Of a DNA stretch of 64,000 nucleotides, positions 1,524-34,142 are shown in pieces (position 1 is the first letter of the stretch; every line of letters starts with the position of its first letter). The position numbers and the translations under genes were made by a program. The stretch lies in contig QHSO01000001.1 in assembly GCA_003220475.1 (NCBI GenBank), forward strand, positions 4,346 through 68,345, given 5' to 3'. This stretch comes from Candidatus Rokuibacteriota bacterium (GTDB taxonomy: Bacteria > Methylomirabilota > Methylomirabilia > Rokubacteriales > CSP1-6). The notes under the pieces were generated by a model. It made no database searches. It saw only the letters and a program-made list of their open reading frames with translations, and was not told where the DNA came from.

Positions 1524-2057
1524 CTATTCCTGCCCGTTCAGCAGCAGCTTCACGATTGCCGGCACGATCTCGCGTGCGCGTCGGTCGAGCTCCGCATCGC
1601 TGAGATTGGCGATCGGATGCGGCATCGCCAGGAACTTGTAGGAGGTGAGCCCCCACTGCTCGGCCATCGCCCTGCCCGTCTTCTCGAACACGTCGGTCAC
1701 GATCGAGGCCGAGGGGATGCCGTGATGCTCCAGCAGAATTCCGTCGAGCACACTGCCCGACGAGCAGGACCCTCAGTCGCCGATCCCGGCGACCATGACG
1801 TCTGCGGATGTCTTGATCGCCGCGATGATCTCCTCGTGCGCCGGCACGCTGGCGTTGTGCTTGCGGTACATCGTCCATTCCGCGATGCCGTGCTCGGCCT
1901 TGAGGATCTGACCGATCCGCTCGAGCAGCTTGTCGGAGTTGAACTTCGTGTTCTCGATCAGCGCCACCCGCTTGCCCGCGAGCGAGCCCGGCCGCGGCGA
2001 GTACTCGATCGGCCGCGGCGACGCGGGCGTGGTGGGATCCAGGATCTCGATGCTCAT
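1524..2057 (-). CDS. UGSC-motif selenoprotein (Sec encoded by in-frame TGA at 1773-1775), function unknown
   Basis: Track ORFs 1773..2120 and 1524..1751 are in the same frame, separated only by TGA 1773-1775 plus 7 sense codons (GSCSSGS). Joined product reads ...VMVAGIGD-U-GSCSSGSVLDGILLEHHGIPS... and aligns along its length with the N-terminal domain of the 6653..8227 product. Start ATG 2055-2057 (M22 of track ORF) overlaps the partner gene stop 2054-2056. AGGAG sits 8 nt upstream. Confidence 0.75.
1743..1761 (-). promoter_or_regulatory. SECIS-like hairpin 12 nt downstream of UGA (GUCGGGCA-GUG-UGCUCGAC)
   Basis: mRNA reads UGA GGGUCCUGCUC then an 8-bp stem-loop starting GUCG and ending CGAC, with G-U in the apical loop. 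Same spacing and stem ends as the element at 7925..7943. Confidence 0.5.
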
Positions 2058-3034
2058 CGCTTGATCTCCTTCGTAATGGCTGCGGAGGACTTCGCGCTCG
2101 ACCAGCCCGGGATGAAGCACGAGAACGCGCCGGCGCGGCCGCCGGCGGCCACGACGAGGATGTCGTCGGGCGCGGCCACGAGCGGGCGCATCCTGCTCTC
2201 GTCACCCGCCTCCGGCGCGCCCGCCATGCGCTGCGTCCGCTTGAGGTGCGCGTGCGCATTCTGCGTGTGCTCCCAGACGAACTGCCGGATCCGCTTCTTG
2301 TCCCAACCGTCGGCGGCGATCGTCTTCATGTGCTCGCCCGCGAGCACGAGACAGTAGTGCGGCTGCCCCATCACGTTGCCGGAGATGCGCATGCTGTCCG
2401 CCAGCGTGATGAGGACACCCTCGGCCGTGCTCGAGAGCTGGTTGTAGAACTGGTGCGGGCCTTCCGCCGCCATCACGGTGACCGTCGACTGCTCGGGCCG
2501 AAAGCCGCGCTCGACGTGCAGCGGCGTCCACGGGCTCTCCGCCTCGTTCTCGGCGATCACGTACGAGAGCTTGCCGGGATGGCCGACGGTGCCGCGGTCG
2601 AGCAGGCCGGGCATCGAGCCGCACACGTTGCGCATGACCAGGCGCACCGCGCGCCCGATCGTGAGATTCGCGCGCCAGCCGGGACCGAAGAGGTTGTCGC
2701 CCGCGTTGATGTCGAGCTCACGCGCGATCGGTCCGTTGACGATCATCAGCACGGCCGCGCCGGCGGTCGACGTGCCCGGGCCGTGATAACTCCAGCCCTC
2801 GTCGCCGATCCCCTCGACTGCGGCCACCACGACCGGCATGTACTCCGGCTTGCAGCCCGCCATCACCGCGTTGATCGCGACTTTCTCGGCCGTGACCGTC
2901 ACGAACCGATCGCGGATATAGGCGAGCTTGGCATCCGGCGCGAGCCGGACCGCGTCCAGCATGGCGCGCACCGCCGACTCGGTGGGCGGGACGACCGGCA
3001 GTCCGTCGCTCCAGCCTCCCTGGTGCCTGCCCAA
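2054..3034 (-). CDS. conserved hypothetical protein, partner domain of the UGSC selenoprotein (DUF-like)
   Basis: 326 aa. About 55-60% identical to the C-terminal 325 aa of the 6653..8227 product (GWSDGLPVVPPTE, NGPIAxxLxxxxGxNxxGxGxRANxxIGRAxRLV, GHPGKxxYxxAENEAxSPWxPLHVERGF). Stop TGA overlaps the UGSC gene ATG (ATGA). Confidence 0.75.
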   Translation of the reverse strand: MGRHQGGWSDGLPVVPPTESAVRAMLDAVRLAPDAKLAYIRDRFVTVTAEKVAINAVMAGCKPEYMPVVVAAVEGIGDEGWSYHGPGTSTAGAAVLMIVNGPIARELDINAGDNLFGPGWRANLTIGRAVRLVMRNVCGSMPGLLDRGTVGHPGKLSYVIAENEAESPWTPLHVERGFRPEQSTVTVMAAEGPHQFYNQLSSTAEGVLITLADSMRISGNVMGQPHYCLVLAGEHMKTIAADGWDKKRIRQFVWEHTQNAHAHLKRTQRMAGAPEAGDESRMRPLVAAPDDILVVAAGGRAGAFSCFIPGWSSAKSSAAITKEIKR

Positions 3035-3160
3035 ACAGGCGACGCCACGCTACCACCCGCCGCCGCGTCGCCGCAACCGCGCGCCTTGACCGGTGCGGCG
3101 CAGGTGTCGCATACTGCGCGGACTCTCGAACTCAGCCGCCACTGAAGAACGGAGACGCGA

Positions 3161-6100
3161 GTGCGGTGTGCCCGGTGCCAGCACGACAACGCGCCCGGGG
3201 CCAAATTCTGCATGGAGTGTGGCGCGCGCCTGGGCTCGATCGCCGACGCGCCCCGAACCGAGTCGCCTGAGGCCTACACCCCCGCGCACCTCGCCAGCAA
3301 GATCCTGAGCGCGCGCGAAACGCTGGCCGGGGAGCGCAAGCAGGTCACCGTGCTGTTCGCAGATCTCAAGGGCTCGCTCGAGCTTCTCGCCGACCGCGAT
3401 CCCGAGGACGCGCGCGCCCTGCTCGACGCGGTGCTGGAGCGGATGATGGAGGCGGTGCACCGGTACGAGGGCACGGTCAACCAGGTCATGGGCGACGGCA
3501 TCATGGCCCTCTTCGGCGCGCCGGTCGCCCGCGAGGACCACGCGGTGCGCGCGTGCTACGCGGCGCTGCGCATGCACCGCGCCATCGCCCACGACGCGGA
3601 CGACGTGCGTCGGCGGCTCGGCGTCGACGTGCAGATCCGCGTCGGCCTGAACTCGGGCGAGGTGGTCGTCCGCTCGATCGGCAGCGATCTCCGAATGGAC
3701 TACAGCGCCGTCGGCCAGACGACCCACCTCGCGGCGCGGATGGAGCAGCTCACGCGTCCCGGCACCACGCTGATCACCGCGGCCACGCACCGCCTCGCGG
3801 CGCGCTTCATCGACGCCGCGCCGCAGGGGCCGATGCCGGTGAAGGGCCTGCGCGATCCCGTCGAGGTGTGGGAGCTCAAGCGGGCGACGCCGGTCACGTC
3901 GAGCCTCGGCGCCGTCGCCGGACGTGCGCAGACGGCGATGCTCGGCCGCGCCGCGGAGATGGCGACGCTGGCCCGGCTGCTGGCGCGCGCCCGCGAGGGC
4001 CGCGGGCAGCTCGTCACGCTGGTGGGCGAGCCGGGCGTCGGCAAGTCGCGTCTCGTCTGGGAACTCTCGCGCGGGGCCGCTGCCGACGGCTGGCAGATGC
4101 ACGAGGCGGCGTGCGTCTCCTACGGCATGCTCACGCCCTATCTGCCCCTCCGAAATCTGCTGACGAGGTACTTCGACGTCGAGGACGGCGACGACGCGCG
4201 GCGCATCCGCGAAAAGGTGGCGACGCGGATGGTGGCGCTCGACACACGACTCGCCGGCGGCGTCTCGGCGATCCTGGCGCTCGGCAACGTCCCCAACGAC
4301 GACGCCGAGTGGGACGCGCTCGCGCCCACCATGCGACGCCAGCGGATCCTCAAGGCCGTGCGCGAGCTGCTGCTGGCCGAAAGCCGTCGCGCGCCGTTGC
4401 TCCTCGTGGTCGAGAGTCTGGAGTGGGCGGACTCGGAGACGCACGCGCTCGTCGAAGATCTCGCCGCAGGGCTCGCCGAGGCGCGCATGCTCGTGGTCGT
4501 GACGGCGCGGCCCGAGCGCCGGCGCGACTGGTCGAGCACCGGTGACACGACGGAGATCCGGCTCGATCCGCTGGGCGCGGCCAGCGCCGCGGCGCTGGCC
4601 GACGCGATCCTCGGGCCCGCCGACGAGCTGGCGGCGCTCAAGCGACGGCTCGTCGCGCACACCGCGGGCAACGCGTTTTTCATGGAGGAGATCGTGCAGG
4701 CACTCGTCGAGACGCACGCGCTCGCCGGTGAGCGCGGGCAGTATCGCCTCGGCAGACTCGTGGAGGGCCTGCAGATCCCCGATCGCGTGCAGGCCGTGCT
4801 GGCCGCGCGCATCGACCGACTGTCTGGCGAGAGCAAGGCGGTCTTGCAGGCCGGCGCGGCCATCGGCGTCGATGTGCCGGTGGCGCTGTTGCAGGCGGTG
4901 GCCAACGCCTCGTCCGAGGAGGTGCTGCACGCGCTCGCGGAGCTCGAGGCCGCCGACTTCGTGCGGCCGAGCGCGCTGGTGCCCGATCTCGCCTACTCGT
5001 TCAAGCACGCGATCACCCAGGAGGTCGCCTACGCCACGCTGCTGAAAGAGCAGCGCCGCGCGCTGCACGCGCGCATCGTCGCGGCGCTCGAGGCCAGCTA
5101 TCCCGGCGAGCGCCGCGCCGAGCACGTCGAGCGGCTCGCCTACCATGCGCTGCGGGCGGAGGCCTGGCCCACCGCCGTCGGCTATCTGCGCGACGCGGGC
5201 GAGCGCGCGGTGGCGCGCTCGGCCAATCGTGAGGCCGCCGCCTTCTACGAGGACGCGCTGCGCGCGCTGGCGCATCTGCCGGAGAGCCGCGACACGTTCG
5301 CGCTCGCCATCGATCTGCGCCTCGATCTGCGCGTGCCGTTGCTGCAGCTCGGCCGGCTCGACGATCTCCACCGGCTGTCGAAAGAAGCCGAGAGCATGGC
5401 GCAGCACGTCGGCGACGAGGAGCGGCTGGCGCGCGCGTACTCGTATCTCGTGAACTACCACTATCTGCTCGGCGAGCCGGCGCGCGCCGACGAATACGGT
5501 GCACGCTGCCTCGCGATCGCCGGGCGGCGTCGCGATCCCGAGCTGGCGATGCTCGCCCGACGCTACCTCGGCCACAGTCACCACGCGCAGGGCCGGCACC
5601 GCATGGCCATCGAGGTCCTCGACGACAATCTCAGTGCGCTGGTCGCGGAGACCGCGGGCAGCATGGCGGTGGCCCGCACGACGGCCTACGTGGCGTCGGC
5701 GACCTGGCTCGCGTGGGCGCTGGCCGATCTCGGCGAGTTCGAGCGGGCCGATGCGTACCTCGACCGGGCGCGGGCGCAGTCGGATCTCGCGCGGCACCCG
5801 TACAGCCAGGCGATCGCGTGGACGCTCACCGGCGCCGTCTGGTACACGCGCGGTCAGCTCGATCGCGCGATGCCGACGCTGGCGCGCGGCCTCGAGATCT
5901 GCCGAGACGCGAACCTCACCGTGTGGCAGCCGATTCCGACCACGCTGCTCGGCGCGTGCCTGCTCGCGCTCGATCGCAAGGACGACGGTCTGGCGCTGCT
6001 CCGCGATGGCGTCCGCCGCGCCGAGTCGCTCGGCGTCATGGCCTATCTCTCACGCTGGACGCTGCAGCTCGCCGAGGGCCTGCTGGTCACCGGCGACGTC

Positions 6101-6649
6101 GCCGGCGCGCGGGTCACCGCCGATCGCGCGATGGCACTGGCCCTGACGCATGGCGAGCGCGCGCACGAGGCGATGGCGTGGCGCGTGCTCGGCGACGTCG
6201 CGGTGCGGGAACGCGAACTGGAGGCAGCGCGCCAGGCGTACGAGCAGGCGCTGCTGCTGGGCGAAGAGCTGGGGCTGCGCCCGCAGGTCGCGCGCGCCCA
6301 CTTCGACCTCGGCCGACTGGAGCGCCGTCTCGGCCATCTCGACGACGCCGAGGATCACCTCGCGCGCGCGGTCGTGCTCTTCGCCGAGATGGGCATGCGC
6401 GGCTGGCTCGAGCGGTCGCAGCCGGAGCTCAAGGCGCTCGGTCATCTGGTGATCGTGGCGCGCTCGAACATGAACCTCTTCGACTATCTGACGGAAAAGT
6501 TCGCCGGCGACCCCGACGTCAGCGTGATCCTCGATCGGCGCCAGGACGCGCCCATGCGCACGGCCGCGATGGGAACCGCCGAGCGGCGCCATCACACGAC
6601 GGACCAGGCCCTGCGCACGCGCGGACTGGCCGTCGTCGTCCCCGAGTAA
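3161..6649 (+). CDS. adenylate/guanylate cyclase (CHD) - AAA/STAND ATPase - TPR signalling protein with N-terminal double zinc ribbon
   Basis: 1162 aa. N-terminus CARCQHDNAPGAKFCMECG zinc ribbon. Class III cyclase domain (VTVLFADLKGS...GDGIMALFGAP). Walker A GEPGVGKS. Long TPR-like C-terminal region. Confidence 0.85.
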   Translation: MRCARCQHDNAPGAKFCMECGARLGSIADAPRTESPEAYTPAHLASKILSARETLAGERKQVTVLFADLKGSLELLADRDPEDARALLDAVLERMMEAVHRYEGTVNQVMGDGIMALFGAPVAREDHAVRACYAALRMHRAIAHDADDVRRRLGVDVQIRVGLNSGEVVVRSIGSDLRMDYSAVGQTTHLAARMEQLTRPGTTLITAATHRLAARFIDAAPQGPMPVKGLRDPVEVWELKRATPVTSSLGAVAGRAQTAMLGRAAEMATLARLLARAREGRGQLVTLVGEPGVGKSRLVWELSRGAAADGWQMHEAACVSYGMLTPYLPLRNLLTRYFDVEDGDDARRIREKVATRMVALDTRLAGGVSAILALGNVPNDDAEWDALAPTMRRQRILKAVRELLLAESRRAPLLLVVESLEWADSETHALVEDLAAGLAEARMLVVVTARPERRRDWSSTGDTTEIRLDPLGAASAAALADAILGPADELAALKRRLVAHTAGNAFFMEEIVQALVETHALAGERGQYRLGRLVEGLQIPDRVQAVLAARIDRLSGESKAVLQAGAAIGVDVPVALLQAVANASSEEVLHALAELEAADFVRPSALVPDLAYSFKHAITQEVAYATLLKEQRRALHARIVAALEASYPGERRAEHVERLAYHALRAEAWPTAVGYLRDAGERAVARSANREAAAFYEDALRALAHLPESRDTFALAIDLRLDLRVPLLQLGRLDDLHRLSKEAESMAQHVGDEERLARAYSYLVNYHYLLGEPARADEYGARCLAIAGRRRDPELAMLARRYLGHSHHAQGRHRMAIEVLDDNLSALVAETAGSMAVARTTAYVASATWLAWALADLGEFERADAYLDRARAQSDLARHPYSQAIAWTLTGAVWYTRGQLDRAMPTLARGLEICRDANLTVWQPIPTTLLGACLLALDRKDDGLALLRDGVRRAESLGVMAYLSRWTLQLAEGLLVTGDVAGARVTADRAMALALTHGERAHEAMAWRVLGDVAVRERELEAARQAYEQALLLGEELGLRPQVARAHFDLGRLERRLGHLDDAEDHLARAVVLFAEMGMRGWLERSQPELKALGHLVIVARSNMNLFDYLTEKFAGDPDVSVILDRRQDAPMRTAAMGTAERRHHTTDQALRTRGLAVVVPE

Positions 6650-6652
6650 CGC

Positions 6653-8227
6653 TCAGGCCTCGATCCGCTCCGTCACCGAGCGCGTGGCGCCGAACGTCGG
6701 CACGATGGCCGAGTGCTTGCCCGGACCGCCCGCGACGATCACCATCACGTCCTCGGGCTTCGACGCGAACGGCAGCAGCGTGTCGGGGCCCGCGTTCTCG
6801 AACCGCTCGGGATGCGTGAGCTTGAAGCGCGCGATGTTGTCCGCCGAGAACTTCGCCATCGGCACGCGCGCGGCGTCCCAGAAGCGGCTCTGGAAGTCCT
6901 GCTTCGACCAGCCCGACGAGGCGAGCGTCTGCGCGTGCTCGGGGCCGAGGATCACGAGCGGATCGCCAGCCAGATAGATGTTGTTGCTGCCGGTGGTCGC
7001 CGCCGTGCCGGCGAGCGCGGCCATCAGCGTCTCGCCCGTCGTCGAGCCGTGGTCGTTGACGTTGTGGGGAGGCTCGGAGCCGCACACGGTCACCGTGCTG
7101 TCCTCGCGCGCGAAGCCGCGCTCCACGTGCAGCGGCTCCCACGGCGACTGCGCCTCGTTCTCGGCCAGGCAGTACGTGAACTTCCCCGGATGCCCGAGCG
7201 TCGCGCGGTCCTCTCGGCCCGGGCGCGCGCCGCCGACGTTCTGCAGCACCAGTCGCAGCGCGCGGCCGATGACCGCGTTGGCGCGATGGCCGTTGCCGAG
7301 CGCGTTCGGTCCGCCCGCCACGCCGAGCCGCGCCGCGATGGGACCGTTGACGATGACGAGCGGCGAGCACGGATGCGTCGTGCACTGGATCGCGTTGAGG
7401 TTGAACTGCGGCGTGGCCACGGCGCGCACGGCGGCGATGATCACCGGCAGGTGCTCGGGGCCCGCGCCCGCCAGCGCGGCGTTGACGGCGATCGCGTGCA
7501 GCGTCGCGCGACCGTCGAGCGGCATGAGCGTCGAGGCCAGTTCCTCGCCTGCGCGACGGCCGAGGATCTTCGCCACCCGCGCTTCGGTCGGCGGCAGCAC
7601 GGGCAGCCCGTCCGACCACTCCTGCTCCATCGCCCACAGCTGGAACGCGTCGAGATCCTCCGGCGCCTCCACGAGGGTCGGACGGGCCGCCGCCGTGGTC
7701 GCGGGCGGGGTGGGATCCGACGTCAGGCCGCGCAGAACCTCATCGAGGATCGCGTCGGCTTTCGCGCGCGCCGTGTCGGTGGGGATGCCGCCGAGCGGAT
7801 GCGGCACGAGCGCCACCGGCATGTGCGGCAGTCCATGTTTCGCGGACGTCGCCCTCGCGAGCGAGAGAAACGCGTCGGTGCCGAGCACGACGGACGGGAC
7901 GCCCCGCCCTTCCAGCTGCGCCGCGTCGTGGATACTCCACGACGTGCAGGACCCTCAGTCGGCGCTCCCGGTCAGCACGACGTCAGCACCCTTCGCGATG
8001 TCGTCGAGGATCTCGGCCGGCCGCGCCGCACTGGGCTTGCTCCAGCCGCGCACGCCCGCCGCGCCCGTGCGCGCGGCGAGCAGCTCGGCGACCCGATGCA
8101 GGAGCGCGCCGGCGTTCGGCTTGGAATTGTCGAGGACGCCGATGGTGAGACCGGCCAGGCTCGGCTTGCGCGGCGCGAGCCGCCCGATCTTCGCCTGGCC
8201 GCCTGAGAACGGGCTCCAGAGTTTCAT
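6653..8227 (-). CDS. fused UGSC-motif selenoprotein + partner domain (Sec encoded by in-frame TGA at 7955-7957)
   Basis: Track ORF 6653..7888 and the last 90 codons of ORF 7955..9592 share a frame, interrupted only by TGA 7955-7957. Product reads MKLWSPF...VVLTGSAD-U-GSCTSWS...EWSDGLPVLPPTE... About 524 aa. ATG 8225-8227 overlaps the MFS gene stop 8224-8226 (ATGA). Confidence 0.75.
7925..7943 (-). promoter_or_regulatory. SECIS-like hairpin 12 nt downstream of UGA (GUCGUGG-AGUAU-CCACGAC)
   Basis: mRNA reads UGA GGGUCCUGCAC followed by a perfect 7-bp stem with a 5-nt loop containing GU. The core GCAGGACCCTCAGTCG is identical to that at 1764-1779. Confidence 0.5.
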
Positions 8228-19904: not shown

Positions 19905-21550
19905 GCCGCGGGCTCGCGCTCGACGTCCTCGACGTAGCGCACGAAGTGCGGATAGAGCTGGATGGGATGGTTGAGCGGCTCCGGCAACCGCACGCCGGGC
20001 GGCGCCACCACGAACGTGTGCAGCTCTTCCGGCGACGGTCCCGCGTGCGCGCCGGCTTCGGCGATGTACGACACGTGCCCGGAGGACGCATCGATGCCGT
20101 AGACGACGAGATCGCCGGCGCTGGGCATCGCCATGAGATCGGCGACGGCGGAGACGACCAGCGGCGCATCGGGGCGTGCCGCGAAGGGGCCGGGCTCGGC
20201 GAGGCTCAGACGGTAGCGTTTGCCGCGCCAGAAGCACACGGGACCGTCAGCACCACGCGTGAGGACATAGCCGACGCCCGGATGGCGCGAGAGATCCTCG
20301 GCCAGTCCGGGCCACCGCTCCTCGATCCGCTCGATGGACAGCGCCTCGGCGTGGTCGACGAAGTAGATGAACGCGTTCGGGCCGGCCGCGATGACGCGGA
20401 CGTTGTCGCGCTCGTGCGCCTCCTTCACCTCGCCGAGGATCCACGGAAAACCATCCTCGATGTAGTTGAAGAATCGCTGGAAGTACCCTGGCGCGCGGCC
20501 CATACGGAGGGCCTTGATGCCGCTGGCGAGGCGGTGGCGCCCGGCCGGACGCTCGGGACTGACGGGGCGGGCCCCGGCGGGTGTGAAGAAGTCCTCGAAG
20601 ATCACGCGCTCGAAGCGCCGCCCGCCGCTGAGCTGGCCGAAGGGCTTGGTCAGCGCCTGCCCGTGATCGGACAGGATATAAAGGTCGTACGCGTGCTCGG
20701 GCACGCGACGGCACACGCGCCAGATCTGCTTGATCGCGTCGTCGATGCGCCGCAGGCTGCGCAGCGCACGCGGATGCCGCGGCCCGTAGGCGTGCGAGAC
20801 GACGTCGTAGTCGAGATAGTTGACGTAGATCGACGGCACGCCGGCATAGACGTCACGCGCGACGGCGAGCGTGAAGAGCTCCCGCACCCAGACCGAGAGC
20901 CCGAGCTTGATGGCCAGCCACTTCCACCCGCGCGCCCACTCGCCCACCGGGTCGGCGAGCAGGCGCAGCACGGCGCGCGCGAGCTCGACGACGGTGATCA
21001 CCGTGCTCTTGAGCGCGACCCAGAGCAGCACGATGATGGCCGATAGCGCCGCGAGCAGGCCGCTGCCGCTCGGCCGCTTCATGATCGCGAACGTGAACAG
21101 GTTCTGCAGAGCGCCGCCGGTGAAAACGCAACCATAGCAGGCGCCGCCCTCGACGATGCCGCGACGACCGCTCGCCTGCGCGCGCTCCACGCGCGCGGCG
21201 TCGCCCGCGCGTGGGAAGTACACGTCCTCGCGCTGCCGCTTGTCGTGATAGTGGAAGCCGGGGATGTCCGGCCGCACGCCGTACATCGCGGCAAGCTGGA
21301 AGGAAGGCGTCGACGAAGGCAGACCGACGAACATCGGATGCACTCGCCAGCCGGCGCGCTCGATCACCCGGCGCAGGAACGGCATGCGCCTCTCCGCCAG
21401 CGCCTGCTCCAGCACGCCGCGCGAGAGTCCGTCGATCTGGACGACGAGCAGGCGGCGGCGTCCCGGGGTAGGCGCACGTCCGCGCCGGGCGCGCCGAACG
21501 AGGCGATCGACGAAACGCTGGAGGGCGAGCACCAGGTCGTCGAGAGGCAT
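19901..21550 (-). CDS. alkaline-phosphatase-superfamily type I phosphodiesterase / nucleotide pyrophosphatase family protein with internal TM segment
   Basis: LDYDVVSHAYGP and YILSDHGQ motifs. Central hydrophobic stretch. Confidence 0.65.
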   Translation of the reverse strand: MPLDDLVLALQRFVDRLVRRARRGRAPTPGRRRLLVVQIDGLSRGVLEQALAERRMPFLRRVIERAGWRVHPMFVGLPSSTPSFQLAAMYGVRPDIPGFHYHDKRQREDVYFPRAGDAARVERAQASGRRGIVEGGACYGCVFTGGALQNLFTFAIMKRPSGSGLLAALSAIIVLLWVALKSTVITVVELARAVLRLLADPVGEWARGWKWLAIKLGLSVWVRELFTLAVARDVYAGVPSIYVNYLDYDVVSHAYGPRHPRALRSLRRIDDAIKQIWRVCRRVPEHAYDLYILSDHGQALTKPFGQLSGGRRFERVIFEDFFTPAGARPVSPERPAGRHRLASGIKALRMGRAPGYFQRFFNYIEDGFPWILGEVKEAHERDNVRVIAAGPNAFIYFVDHAEALSIERIEERWPGLAEDLSRHPGVGYVLTRGADGPVCFWRGKRYRLSLAEPGPFAARPDAPLVVSAVADLMAMPSAGDLVVYGIDASSGHVSYIAEAGAHAGPSPEELHTFVVAPPGVRLPEPLNHPIQLYPHFVRYVEDVEREPAA

Positions 21551-21578
21551 CGGATTTCATTGTACTATCGCATCCGCG

Positions 21579-23702
21579 ATGGACCTCCACCCGAACGTCG
21601 TCGCCGCCGTGCGGCGGTTCGTCGAGGAGGCTGTGCGGCCCGCCGCGCCCGAGCTCGAGCACGCCGACACGTACCCGCACGCCCTGGTCGACCGGATGCG
21701 GGCCCTCGGCCTGTTCGGCGCGCTGGTGCCGCGCGAGTACGGCGGTCTCGGCCTCGACGTCACGACGTACGCCCGCGTGATCGAGGAGCTGTGCCGGGGC
21801 TGGATGTCCCTCGCCGGCGTCATCAACAGCCACACGATGGCCGCGCTGATCGTGCTGTATCACGGCACCGAGGCCCAGCGCCGCCGGCTGCTGCCGCGCT
21901 TCGCCACCGGCGAGGCGCGCGGCGGTCTGTGCCTCACCGAGCCGCACGCGGGCTCGGACGTGCAGGCGATTCGCACGCGGGCGATCCAGCGCGGCGAGAC
22001 CTACGTGATCACCGGCACGAAGATGTTCGTGACCAACGGTCGCGAGGGCAACACGTTCGCGCTGCTGGCCGTCACCGATCCCTTCGCCCAGCCGCGCCAC
22101 CGCGGCATGTCGTGCTTCATCATCGAGAAGGGCGCGCCCGGCCTCGCCGTTGTGAAGTCGATCGGCAAGCTCGGCTACAAGGGCGTCGACACCGCGGAGT
22201 TGGTTTTCGAGGACTTCCCCTGCTCGGCCGCGAATCTCGTCGGCGGCGTCGAGGGACGCGGCTTCGGCCAGGTCATGAGCGGTCTCGAGGCGGGGCGGAT
22301 CAACATCGCGGCACGCGCGGTCGGCGTCGCGCGCGCCGCGTACGAGGAAGCCGCCGCGTGCCGGGCCGGCGCGGCGCGCCTCGAGGACATGGCGGCCCGC
22401 GTGGACGCCGCGCGTCTGCTGACGTATTGGGCGGCGGGCATGAAGGATCGCGCCGAGCGCTGCGACCTCGAAGCCGGCATGGCGAAGCTCTTCGCCTCCG
22501 AAACGGCGCAGGAGGTCGCCCTCGACGCGGTCCGCCTCTGCGGAACCTCCACCGCGATGCTCATCGAGCGCTGCTATCGCGACGCGCCGCTGATGATCAT
22601 CGGCGAGGGCACCAACGAGATCCAGCGCACGATCATCGCGCGCCAGCTCGTCGAGCGGCACGGCGAGCGCGGCGGCGCGCTCGTCTCGCGCGAGGGCGAG
22701 CCCGAGGAGCGCCGGCAGATGCTGCTCGCGGTGCGCCAGGTCGTCGACAAGAGCGTGGCGCCGGTGGCCGCCGAGCACGATCGCGCCGGCGACATCCCGG
22801 ACGAGATCGTCGCCCAACTGGCCGATCTCGGCGTGTTCGCCGCGCTGGTCCCGGCCGCGCACGGCGGTCTCGGACTGGACCCCGCGACGTGGACGATGAT
22901 GATCGAGGAAGTCGCGCGCGTGTGGGCGGCGCCGGCGCTGCTGGCCGTCGAGCAGGGCGCCGTGGCGTATGGCCTCGGCCTCGCGGGTGGCGAGAGCGCA
23001 CGTCAGCTGAGCGCGCTCGCGCGCGCGGAGACGCTCGCCGCCGTCGTGCCGTTGCCCGAGGCGCTCGTCCGGTACGAGGACTCCGCGTGCGTGCTCGACG
23101 GCACCACGCCGCCCATCGCTCACGCTCGACGCGCCGGGCTCCTGGCCCTGGCGCTCGCGGACGGCAGCGCGTGGTGGCTCGTGCCCGCGTCGATGACCGG
23201 CGTCACGCTCGTGGCCGCCGCGGCCGATCTGGGGCTGCGCGGCGCCCCGCCGGCGGCGGTGGCCCTGCGCGGCGTGCGGCTGCCCGTCTCGCGTCCCTCG
23301 GTATCGGCGCCATCCCTGCTCGCCGTGATGGACCTCGGCGTCGGCGCAGTCGCGGTGGGCCTGGGCCAGGCCGCCTTCGAAGCGGCGCTGCGCTACTCGC
23401 AGCAGCGCACCACGTTCGGCAAGGCAATCTGTCAGCACCAGGCCGTGCAGCTCAAGCTCGCCGACATGGCGACGCGGCTCACCGCCGCGCGCCTGCTGGT
23501 CTGTGACACGGCCACGCTGGCGAGCGACGGTCACACGGCGGCGCGCCGCGCGCGGAGCTTCGCGGTCGACGCCGCGATCGGCGTCACGCTCGAGTCCATG
23601 CGCATCCACGGCGGCTATGGCTACACGACGGAGTTCGCCGTCGAGCGCTATTACCGCGACGCGGCCGCGCTGCTGAGCGCGCCGGCGCGCGCCACCGGCT
23701 GA
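21579..23702 (+). CDS. acyl-CoA dehydrogenase with tandem ACAD domains (second domain degenerate)
   Basis: M106 of track ORF 21264..23702. First 380 aa form a complete ACAD (GGLCLTEPHAGSD...IGEGTNEIQR). Residues 390-707 repeat the fold but are divergent. Confidence 0.8.
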   Translation: MDLHPNVVAAVRRFVEEAVRPAAPELEHADTYPHALVDRMRALGLFGALVPREYGGLGLDVTTYARVIEELCRGWMSLAGVINSHTMAALIVLYHGTEAQRRRLLPRFATGEARGGLCLTEPHAGSDVQAIRTRAIQRGETYVITGTKMFVTNGREGNTFALLAVTDPFAQPRHRGMSCFIIEKGAPGLAVVKSIGKLGYKGVDTAELVFEDFPCSAANLVGGVEGRGFGQVMSGLEAGRINIAARAVGVARAAYEEAAACRAGAARLEDMAARVDAARLLTYWAAGMKDRAERCDLEAGMAKLFASETAQEVALDAVRLCGTSTAMLIERCYRDAPLMIIGEGTNEIQRTIIARQLVERHGERGGALVSREGEPEERRQMLLAVRQVVDKSVAPVAAEHDRAGDIPDEIVAQLADLGVFAALVPAAHGGLGLDPATWTMMIEEVARVWAAPALLAVEQGAVAYGLGLAGGESARQLSALARAETLAAVVPLPEALVRYEDSACVLDGTTPPIAHARRAGLLALALADGSAWWLVPASMTGVTLVAAAADLGLRGAPPAAVALRGVRLPVSRPSVSAPSLLAVMDLGVGAVAVGLGQAAFEAALRYSQQRTTFGKAICQHQAVQLKLADMATRLTAARLLVCDTATLASDGHTAARRARSFAVDAAIGVTLESMRIHGGYGYTTEFAVERYYRDAAALLSAPARATG

Positions 23703-33503: not shown

Positions 33504-34142
33504 GTGATCGGTCCGTTCGCGAGCTCTCCGACGCCGCGGCGAGTCTACACCATCACGCTCACGCTCACGATCGCCCTCACGCTCCTCGGCCTCGGCTGCC
33601 ACGCGCCGGCGCCGGGGGCGGCCGACCGTCTCGTCGTCGAGACGCGGATGTCGAAGGGGCCGGCGACGGCGCCGGTGACGATCGTCGAGTTCTCGGATTA
33701 CCAGTGACCGTTCTGCCGACGCGTCCAGCGGTCGCTGGAGCAGATCCTCAGGGAGTACGATGGTCGGGTGCGTCTGGTCTACAAAGACTTCCCCCTGCCG
33801 TCCCACTCCCTGGCCATGCCCGCGCACGAGGCGGCGCGCTGCGCGGGCGATCAGGGCCGGTACTGGGCGTATCACGACGTGCTGTTCGAGCGTCAGCCGC
33901 GCTTCGAGCGTCAGGACCTCGTCGATTACGCGATCAACCTCAATCTCGACCGCGAGCGCTTCGAGCGCTGCCTGGATGGTCACCAGTACCGCGCCGCCGT
34001 CGAGGCGGATTTCGCGGAAGGCCGCGAGCTGGGTGTGCGCAGCACGCCGACGTTCCTCATCAACGGCAAGCCGCTCGTGGGCGCACAGCCCATCGAGAAT
34101 TTCCGCGCCGCCATCGACGAGGCGCTCCGGGTGCGCCGCTGA
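33504..34142 (+). CDS. DsbA-like thiol:disulfide oxidoreductase selenoprotein (U-P-F-C active site; Sec at TGA 33705-33707)
   Basis: Track ORFs 33393..33707 and 33768..34142 share a frame, separated by TGA plus 20 sense codons. Product reads ...VTIVEFSDYQ-U-PFCRRVQRSLEQILREYDGRVRLVYKDFPLPSHSLAMPAHEAARCAG..., i.e. the DsbA signature DYQCPFC with Sec at the first Cys. N-terminal signal or lipoprotein-like peptide. The start is uncertain (GTG 33486 or 33504) because the divergent DoxX gene occupies everything below 33485. Confidence 0.7.
33724..33739 (+). promoter_or_regulatory. candidate SECIS hairpin 16 nt downstream of UGA (UCCAGC-GGUC-GCUGGA)
   Basis: 6-bp stem with a GGUC loop, read directly from the sequence. 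Confidence 0.35.

Follow-up and report, generated by a model that had tools for sequence, protein, structure and literature searches.

Two genes in the stretch of DNA analyzed here (64,000 nucleotides, hereafter the window) carry a TGA codon in frame within their coding sequence, and the nucleotides around and just downstream of these codons are nearly identical. Is this shared element a SECIS, that is, an RNA hairpin through which SelB directs the decoding of UGA as selenocysteine (Sec), or is it what a conserved peptide looks like when written in the codons of a GC-rich genome? The first-pass annotation held that protein constraint could not be separated from RNA constraint by eye. Homologues do separate them, through a comparison of synonymous sites between genes that contain the UGA (Sec genes) and genes that contain a cysteine codon in its place (Cys genes). 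We conclude with high confidence that each hairpin is a bacterial SECIS within a UGSC selenoprotein gene and that both UGAs are recoded to Sec in a SelB-dependent manner.

Two UGSC genes with internal TGA codons

Gene 1 (2057-1524, minus strand) is predicted to encode a UGSC family selenoprotein of 177 amino acids with Sec as residue 95, and gene 2 (8227-6653, minus strand) a fusion of a UGSC domain to a C-terminal domain, 524 amino acids in length, with Sec as residue 91. The UGSC domain of gene 2 spans approximately residues 1-170 and is followed by a C-terminal domain of approximately 340 amino acids. The in-frame UGA of gene 1 lies at 1775-1773 in the motif G-D-U-G-S-C and that of gene 2 at 7957-7955 in the motif A-D-U-G-S-C (both on the minus strand). 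Thus, D-U-G-S-C is common to both genes, and in both the UGA specifies the first residue of the U-G-S-C motif. A relaxed search for motifs without the preceding D yielded spurious matches only. With U replaced by C, the product of gene 1 scored 145 bits and that of gene 2 126.1 bits against NF041046, the "UGSC family (seleno)protein" model (curated cutoff, 125), and the corresponding scores against PF24696 were 197 bits (2.6e-58) and 164 bits (5.8e-48; cutoff, 25). The window is syntenic with a contig of a metagenome-assembled genome (MAG) of Methylomirabilota, at 83-87% nucleotide identity.

The family to which these genes belong is a documented one. The "UGSC-containing protein" was one of the selenoprotein families best represented in the GOS metagenomes, with 255 Sec and 21 Cys forms, and the 2008 report also describes a fusion of UGSC to an unknown domain ("UGSC/Unknown_1") and suggests a thioredoxin-like fold (Zhang and Gladyshev 2008, PMC2398784). 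A 2026 review lists the family with NF041046. The genes of the window are new members of it, from a Methylomirabilota-like soil genome, and gene 2 is likewise a domain fusion. Publication of the bacterial SECIS model, like that of the UGSC family, dates back years; the feature is of an ordinary and already known kind, and finding it here adds nothing new on the mechanism of recoding.

We assembled the DNA of homologues from one genome scan, one metagenome scan, and look-ups of exact proteins, which together covered the region of the motif in 151 distinct sequences of the TGA type and 19 of the Cys type, the Sec count being inflated by relatedness in that most Sec sequences come from a single phylum, Methylomirabilota. 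The excess of Sec over Cys forms in this set (151 to 19) resembles that in the GOS data (255 to 21), and in the metagenome scan, in which Sec forms were dominant, 11 of 80 loci were of the Cys type. The hosts of the Sec forms are mostly Methylomirabilota/Rokubacteria and include Burkholderiales, other Betaproteobacteria, Entotheonella, and one organism of 44% GC. We refer to homologues that resemble gene 1 as type 1 and to those that resemble gene 2 as type 2.

Could the TGAs be genuine stops, as in split genes or pseudogenes, with any downstream hairpin serving some other purpose such as transcript stability or attenuation? Automatic gene callers do end the proteins at ...GD, as this reading would have it, but several observations speak against it. 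On the minus strand the frames are open and coding-like on both sides of the TGA, and high third-position GC runs across it; in about 150 loci the frame downstream of the TGA stays open and its protein sequence is conserved; and a single HMM match covers both sides of the UGA in gene 1 as well as in gene 2. Moreover, the TGA column aligns precisely with the redox Cys (TGC or TGT) of the 19 Cys homologues, and the hairpin, described below, is not followed by a U-tract. We consider genuine termination at these codons extremely unlikely. Nor do the internal UGAs point to a different genetic code: TGA is the commonest ordinary stop in the window, and the terminator of gene 2 itself is a TGA. Since there is thus no global reassignment of the codon, a local signal must mark the internal UGAs.

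These observations matter chiefly for annotation: each of the two genes ought to be annotated as one continuous selenoprotein open reading frame, with the UGA as Sec. Our protein search recovered full-length Cys forms (...GDCGSCSSG[S/T]VLDG...) together with many broken gene calls, and the broken calls among public annotations end at ...GD (P0079, P0082, P0084, and others), shift frame through the site, or read the UGA as W.

A hairpin 11 nucleotides downstream of each UGA

The element that drew attention to the two genes is a 16-mer, GCAGGACCCTCAGTCG, of which the window has two copies and no more, one at 1764-1779 and the other at 7946-7961 (0.07 matches were expected by chance, and at least two copies were found in 0 of 100 shuffles). 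Both copies span the minus-strand TGA, and both mRNAs read CGAC UGA GGG UCC UGC. The first-pass annotation had reported GAC UGA GGG UCC UGC at both sites, as we do, and had placed the first copy correctly; its position for the second copy, 7943-7958, was 3 nucleotides off. It had also described the mRNAs as identical for 11 nucleotides after the UGA, which overstates the agreement by one: 10 of the 11 positions of the spacer are the same (GGGUCCUGC[U/A]C), the first nine nucleotides being shared, the tenth being U in one and A in the other, and a common CGUCG following.

Exact identity over 16 nucleotides at two loci on the same strand and 6 kb apart could be taken as the mark of a recent duplication or of gene conversion between the paralogues of this genome. 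The two UGSC domains, however, are only 32% identical in amino acid sequence, the nucleotide identity ends 9 nucleotides after the UGA, and the stems that follow differ at two pairs. Furthermore, both types of gene, each with its own version of the hairpin, co-occur in many other genomes (L011, L033-35, L044, L047, L050, L051, and L056). A recent copying event therefore has next to no probability as an explanation for the resemblance.

What, then, accounts for the 16-mer? Its wobble positions vary freely among Sec homologues (GAC/GAT, GGG/GGC/GGA, and TCC/TCG/TCA/TCT/AGC), and the shared 16-mer is for this reason ascribed to the D-U-G-S-C motif plus codon usage. The RNA-constrained element is the 18-nucleotide hairpin core that lies downstream, and not the 16-mer. 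Hence, of the proposal that the near-identical element represents a shared SECIS, the part concerning the hairpins stands and the part concerning the 16-mer itself does not.

The hairpins are found where the first-pass annotation had put them, as 19-nucleotide structures that begin with GUCG, end with CGAC, and expose G-U in the loop. Hairpin 1 (GUCGGGC-AGUGU-GCUCGAC) occupies 1743-1761 and hairpin 2 (GUCGUGG-AGUAU-CCACGAC) occupies 7925-7943, both on the minus strand and both corresponding to +15 to +33 of the mRNA (numbered from the U of the UGA), such that in both genes the hairpin starts 11 nucleotides after the UGA. In hairpin 1 the invariant core of 7 bp plus the GUG loop corresponds to 1744-1760, and the pairs C14-G34 and U13.G35 can extend the structure to 1741-1763; in hairpin 2 the core corresponds to 7926-7942, or to 7924-7944 when lengthened as far as the C14-G34 pair. 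The consensus of the alignment gives a stem of 7 bp, and folds of single sequences give one of 8-10 bp. The loops are A-GUG-U in hairpin 1 and A-GUA-U in hairpin 2, that is, 3 nucleotides, or 5 if the A-U pair is left open. It had been suggested that the loops differ while the stem ends are conserved. The stem ends are indeed conserved, but the stem differs more than the loop: two stem pairs change on both sides between the hairpins, and a single loop nucleotide differs.

Folding bore out the expectation of a stable hairpin at this distance from each UGA. Hairpin 1 folds at -10.2 kcal/mol (z = -3.4; 1 of 200 dinucleotide shuffles as good) and hairpin 2 at -11.1 kcal/mol (z = -4.3; 0 of 200 as good), and the mean over the 151 Sec homologues is -10.0 kcal/mol. 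When 53 nucleotides are folded together, the energy is within the range expected of a sequence of 70% GC (z about -1.3), and thermodynamics alone would therefore not prove function.

How do these hairpins compare with known SECIS elements? A consensus exists for bacterial elements (bSECIS), namely, the model of Zhang and Gladyshev used by bSECISearch. It specifies a loop of 3-9 nucleotides, an upper stem of 4-16 bp, and a minimum free energy no higher than -7.5 kcal/mol; a G at one of the first two loop positions, in the form N1(0-1)-G-[G/U]-N-N2(0-1) with N1/N2 pairing; and 16-37 nucleotides between the UGA and the loop (PMC13188914). Both hairpins agree with the model in every one of its sequence and structure requirements. 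They lie directly downstream of an in-frame UGA and inside the coding region; the loop is 3 nucleotides (or 5) and the upper stem 7-9 bp; the loop sequence A-G-U-R-U fits N1-G-[G/U]-N-N2 in both elements; the distance from A3 of the UGA is 19 nucleotides to G23 and 18 nucleotides to A22; and the energies of -10.2 and -11.1 kcal/mol are below the limit. As would be expected for such an element, the structure is kept in Sec homologues and is dispensable in Cys homologues. The bSECIS elements of different genes usually have no sequence in common (PMC13188914), and by comparison the UGSC element is unusually invariant, its 18-nucleotide core being the same across several phyla.

A more specific comparison can be made with the fdhF gene of E. 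coli. Its SECIS has a minimal upper stem-loop of 17 nucleotides located 11 nucleotides after the UGA, with G23 and U24 in the loop and a bulged U17, and the roles of G23/U24 and of U17 are established in the E. coli literature. We confirmed the fdhF SECIS sequence in 5419 E. coli genomes. When the elements are aligned from the U of the UGA, the UGSC hairpins share with fdhF the 11-nucleotide spacer, the start of the hairpin at G15, the G23-U24 of the apical loop, the U26-G27-C28 of the 3' side, and the A-U pair that closes the loop. They differ from it in three respects. First, the UGSC stem is continuous and lacks the bulged U17, the sole irregularity being a G19.U29 wobble in type 1, which is U-A in type 2. 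Second, the UGSC loop has 3 nucleotides (GUG or GUA), whereas the loop of fdhF is GGUC. Third, the UGSC elements have a longer stem of greater stability (-10 to -11 kcal/mol, as against -4.2 for the minimal hairpin of fdhF).

Rfam contributed no match of this kind: no SECIS family was found at the gathering threshold in the whole window or at E <= 10 in the two 101-nucleotide regions around the elements, for which permissive scans returned only chance matches below threshold. The UGSC element is a family-specific SECIS without representation in Rfam 15.

Constraint on the RNA and constraint on the protein

The stem withstands sequence change. RNAalifold applied to 72 distinct rows returned a 7-bp stem (+16 to +22 with +26 to +32) and a 3-nucleotide loop, with no core pair broken. 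In a structure of 9 pairs, 95.5% of cells are paired, and the fraction drops to 29-46% when the register is slid; the covariation score was matched in 0 of 500 shuffles. The covariation that the first-pass annotation had proposed looking for is thus present, as compensatory changes at three pairs. Pair 19-29 is G.U in type 1 and U-A in type 2; pair 21-27 switches between C-G and G-C, not only from one paralogue type to the other but also, independently, within type 1 (L080); and pair 15-33 is G-C or, in a type 2 locus (L011), A-U. In addition, pair 21-27 is U.G in L161, from the organism of 44% GC, as a result of a one-sided change of C to U that keeps the pairing; the rest of the core in L161 retains its GC-rich codons (TCG...GTG CTC GAC). 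The independent compensatory events are few, about three or four (type 1 versus type 2, L080, L011, and the one-sided change in L161), and as support for the structure, conservation weighs more than covariation.

The hairpin also encodes a peptide, S-S-G-S-V-L-D in type 1 and T-S-W-S-I/V-H-D in type 2. Cys homologues keep the type 1 peptide as S-S-G-[S/T]-V-L-D, and it follows that the protein is constrained at the hairpin regardless of Sec. This raises the question of whether the hairpin has any function as RNA, or whether both it and the 16-mer are by-products of a conserved peptide and a GC-rich codon bias. Of the seven stem pairs, four to six already follow from the peptide SSGSVLD, which is why Cys genes look half-paired, and part of the hairpin can accordingly be attributed to the protein sequence. 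The peptide of the Cys homologues, in which the hairpin-encoded residues are followed by G (SSG[S/T]VLDG), and the freedom of the wobble positions of the 16-mer, which is evidently a matter of protein and codon usage, fit the same reading.

The synonymous sites tell otherwise. In 141 distinct type 1 Sec genes the third-position entropy of codons +5 to +10 (TCG GGC AGT GTG CTC GAC) is 0-0.06 bit, whereas the codons of invariant residues on either side (G+1, S+2, S+4, G+11, I+12, E+15, P+20, T+26, A-5, G-4, G-2, and D-1) have third-position entropies of 0.4-1.5 bit in the same genes, and codons +5 to +10 of 12 Cys genes have entropies of 0.65-1.5 bit. Thus, six consecutive codons are synonymously frozen, and they are frozen only in TGA genes. 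For the serine at +7, which lies in the loop, all 151 Sec genes have AGT, a codon other than the preferred one for serine, even though they use TCG or TCC elsewhere, and 18 of the 19 Cys genes have instead TCG (Ser) or ACC/ACG (Thr). All seven core pairs and a G-U-R loop are present in every one of the 151 Sec sequences, but among the 19 Cys sequences all seven pairs are present in two and a GU loop in one. The core of hairpin 1 is invariant in the 141 distinct type 1 homologues, and hairpin 2 is conserved in nine of type 2. Two further observations are hard to reconcile with a mere by-product, namely, that the 44% GC organism keeps TCG...GTG CTC GAC and that the paralogue types differ in their peptides (G to W, VL to IH) and yet preserve the pairing. 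We conclude that there is selection on the hairpin at the level of RNA and that this selection is specific to UGA-containing homologues; an absence of any RNA function is very unlikely. Homologues that keep the protein without the pairing of the stem, which the first-pass annotation had named as evidence against its proposal, were seen solely among genes of the Cys type. More generally, setting the synonymous sites of Sec genes against those of Cys genes offers a clean way to tell, within coding sequence, what is constrained as RNA from what is constrained as protein.

Two homologues with other codons at the site deserve mention. L163, a Cys homologue with TGT, and L171, from a MAG contig with CGA (Arg), keep the exact core of the hairpin. 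Both look like recent losses of the UGA.

Probable selenocysteine decoding and a possible partner protein

Taken together, agreement with the bSECIS model, the register shared with fdhF, and conservation specific to Sec genes support the original reading of the hairpins as SECIS elements of the SelB-binding type. By analogy with the E. coli and Moorella systems, we infer that SelB binds the hairpins, that G23/U24 play their known role, and that Sec is actually inserted; the machinery for Sec would then be present in this organism. With the in-frame UGA in the ribosomal A site, the hairpin would be held by its 11-nucleotide spacer at the point where mRNA enters the ribosome. Coverage by the ribosome reaches about 11 nucleotides downstream, which leaves the hairpin free for SelB (PMC4513850). 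The small apical loop of the 7-bp hairpin would then present G23-U24, and SelB with Sec-tRNA(Sec) would bind the apical part of the hairpin and deliver selenocysteine to the UGA. As a result, the UGA would be decoded as the U of the U-G-S-C redox motif and termination would be avoided. The ordinary TGA stops of neighboring genes and the terminator of gene 2, which have no such hairpin context, would terminate translation.

Might the UGAs instead be read through without SelB or Sec, by a tRNA that is near-cognate or acts as a suppressor (Trp, Cys, Arg, or Gly), the hairpin being only a generic stimulator? In favor of this, no Sec machinery was seen in the window: selA, selB, and selD were absent among about 25 larger open reading frames scanned in the 64 kb, and ARAGORN found no tRNA, and hence no tRNA-Sec, in the same 64 kb. 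The CGA of L171 and the TGT of L163, each with an intact hairpin, can be cited on the same side. However, in position, in size, and in its G-U loop the hairpin agrees exactly with the SECIS model of the SelB type and with the fdhF numbering; selenoproteins are already documented in this family, which has a Sec/Cys pair at a UxxC redox motif; and the window contains a second kind of candidate selenoprotein gene, a DsbA-like gene with UPFC. Read-through of this sort is accordingly an explanation to which we assign very little weight, and SelB-dependent insertion of Sec remains the reading that we favor.

The DsbA-like gene, the third gene of the window with an internal TGA to be considered here, was located through contiguous segments of high third-position GC. 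It has U-P-F-C in place of CPFC, and its in-frame TGA is followed by a hairpin with a GGUC loop. This candidate selenoprotein gene is consistent with a Sec-decoding organism. A generic scan of the window for an in-frame TGA with open flanks and a hairpin of at least 6 bp passed about 60 of 297 candidates, and such a scan is unspecific at 70% GC.

Gene 1 does not stand alone. Directly upstream of it is a gene that we call X (2054-3034, minus strand; 326 amino acids), whose TGA stop overlaps the ATG of gene 1 (ATGA); gene 2 likewise begins within the stop of another gene, one for an MFS transporter. X lies outside the RNA element and serves here as its genomic context. It has a homologue in gene 2, whose C-terminal domain shares 37% identity with it (E = 2e-68), and the order X then UGSC was found in at least 73 of 109 type 1 loci as judged by a strict test for a GHPGK motif. 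X matched no family in Pfam or NCBIfam, and a sequence-profile search with it gave no significant match in the PDB. UGSC may work with this protein of some 330 amino acids as a partner, whose gene is adjacent and translationally coupled in type 1 and fused in type 2.

A search of PDB sequences with the UGSC profile gave nothing significant. Modeling of a Cys homologue with AF2 (pLDDT 90.9) gave a flavodoxin-like alpha/beta sandwich, as opposed to the thioredoxin-like fold suggested in 2008, and Foldseek with the UGSC model returned weak flavodoxin-like or Rossmann-like matches in the PDB (TM <= 0.47). In the AF2 model, the C/U-G-S-C motif sits at the N-terminus of a helix. SSGSVLD forms the first turns of the helix that follows U-G-S-C. 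Because this peptide is almost invariant in Cys homologues as well and supplies 4-6 stem pairs under any choice of codons, the family may be pre-adapted to a SECIS. If so, pre-adaptation would explain the dominance of Sec forms (in our own sample, with its excess of related Methylomirabilota sequences, as well as in the GOS counts) and the "fossil" hairpins that persist after loss of Sec in L163 and L171. The combined proposal, in which UGSC is pre-adapted to a SECIS through the near-invariant SSGSVLD and UGSC together with X is a two-part selenoenzyme, is one that we put forward tentatively, as somewhat more doubtful than probable.

Finally, we note that in Cys-type loci of Burkholderiales, X and UGSC are found together with a small open reading frame of 82-91 amino acids. 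The neighbors of this trio include genes for an acyl-CoA dehydrogenase, an acyl-CoA synthetase, TctC, and GntR.

Partner protein X and the starts of the UGSC genes

The ORF located directly upstream of UGSC gene 1 (window 2054-3034, minus strand) encodes an uncharacterised protein of 326 amino acids, designated X, for which no relative was found in Pfam, NCBIfam or the PDB sequences. An X-homologous domain (6656-7699, minus strand; 37% identity to X, E = 2e-68) forms the C-terminal part of the fusion encoded by UGSC gene 2, and in most related loci too X is adjoining or fused to UGSC. Motifs kept in X are WSDGLPVxPPTE and GHPGKxxYxxAENExxSPWxPLHVERGF. X may correspond to the "Unknown_1" domain of the description of the UGSC family in the GOS dataset (Zhang and Gladyshev 2008, PMC2398784). 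The ATG of UGSC gene 1 overlaps the TGA stop codon of X (ATGA, 2054-2057), and that of UGSC gene 2 overlaps, in the same manner, the stop codon of the preceding MFS transporter gene (ATGA, 8224-8227). These overlaps suggest that both UGSC genes are translationally coupled to the gene before them. A Rokubacteria contig (L053) carries two copies of a UGSC gene like gene 1, at 6274 and 10565 (about 4.3 kb apart), and the sequence around the Sec codon is identical between them.

Homologues with cysteine codons, possible relict hairpins and public gene calls

In Burkholderiales-like genomes in which UGSC is of the Cys type (TGC or TGT at the column of the Sec codon), the gene order X (about 345 amino acids), UGSC and a small ORF (82-91 amino acids, no Pfam match) is conserved, as judged from five loci (L164, L166, L167, L168 and L170; positions about 1900-3830). 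The genes flanking the trio encode acyl-CoA dehydrogenases, among them a double ACAD of 745 amino acids, as well as an AMP-binding acyl-CoA synthetase, TctC, a CoA-transferase, ETF and a GntR/FCD regulator. A double ACAD is present in the window too (21252-23699, plus strand), but 13-19 kb distant.

Two homologues lack the TGA and retain the exact SECIS core, TCGGGCAGTGTGCTCGAC: the Cys homologue L163 (567-640), with TGT (Cys), and L171, a Rokubacteria MAG contig (46-90), with CGA (Arg). In both, the Sec codon seems to have been lost recently through one nucleotide change, with the hairpin left as a "fossil", although for L171 the CGA may rather be an artefact of assembly or a sequencing variant.

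Public gene predictions mishandle the Sec locus (P0072-P0075, P0079-P0096, P0093 and P0110). Many calls end at ...GD, one reads the UGA as W, and several cross the Sec site out of frame to yield the same nonsense peptide, ATEGPARRAVCSTESCW, which indicates that the nucleotide sequence there is highly conserved.

Predicted fold of the UGSC protein

An AF2 model (m456b4f190f17; pLDDT 90.9, pTM 0.86) was built on P0001, a Cys homologue 63% identical to UGSC gene 1. Whereas a thioredoxin-like fold was proposed in 2008, the predicted fold is three-layer alpha/beta and flavodoxin-like. Its top PDB matches were weak (flavodiiron flavodoxin domain, WrbA and FtsZ; TM <= 0.47). In the model a beta-strand leads into a helix with the C/U-G-S-C motif at its N-terminus, and the first turns of this helix consist of the peptide that the SECIS hairpin encodes.

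A DsbA-like candidate selenoprotein gene

A third candidate selenoprotein gene is a DsbA-like/Thioredoxin_4 ORF (about 33540-34142, plus strand), which matched PF13462 (2.9e-37) and PF01323 (6.4e-25) when U was replaced by C for scoring. Its in-frame TGA (33705-33707, plus strand) would create a U-P-F-C active site where CPFC is expected, and is followed by a hairpin, UCCAGC-GGUC-GCUGGA (33724-33739, plus strand; -9.5 kcal/mol, z = -3.9). The GOS dataset (PMC2398784) includes DsbA-like selenoproteins with ...FQUP.C.
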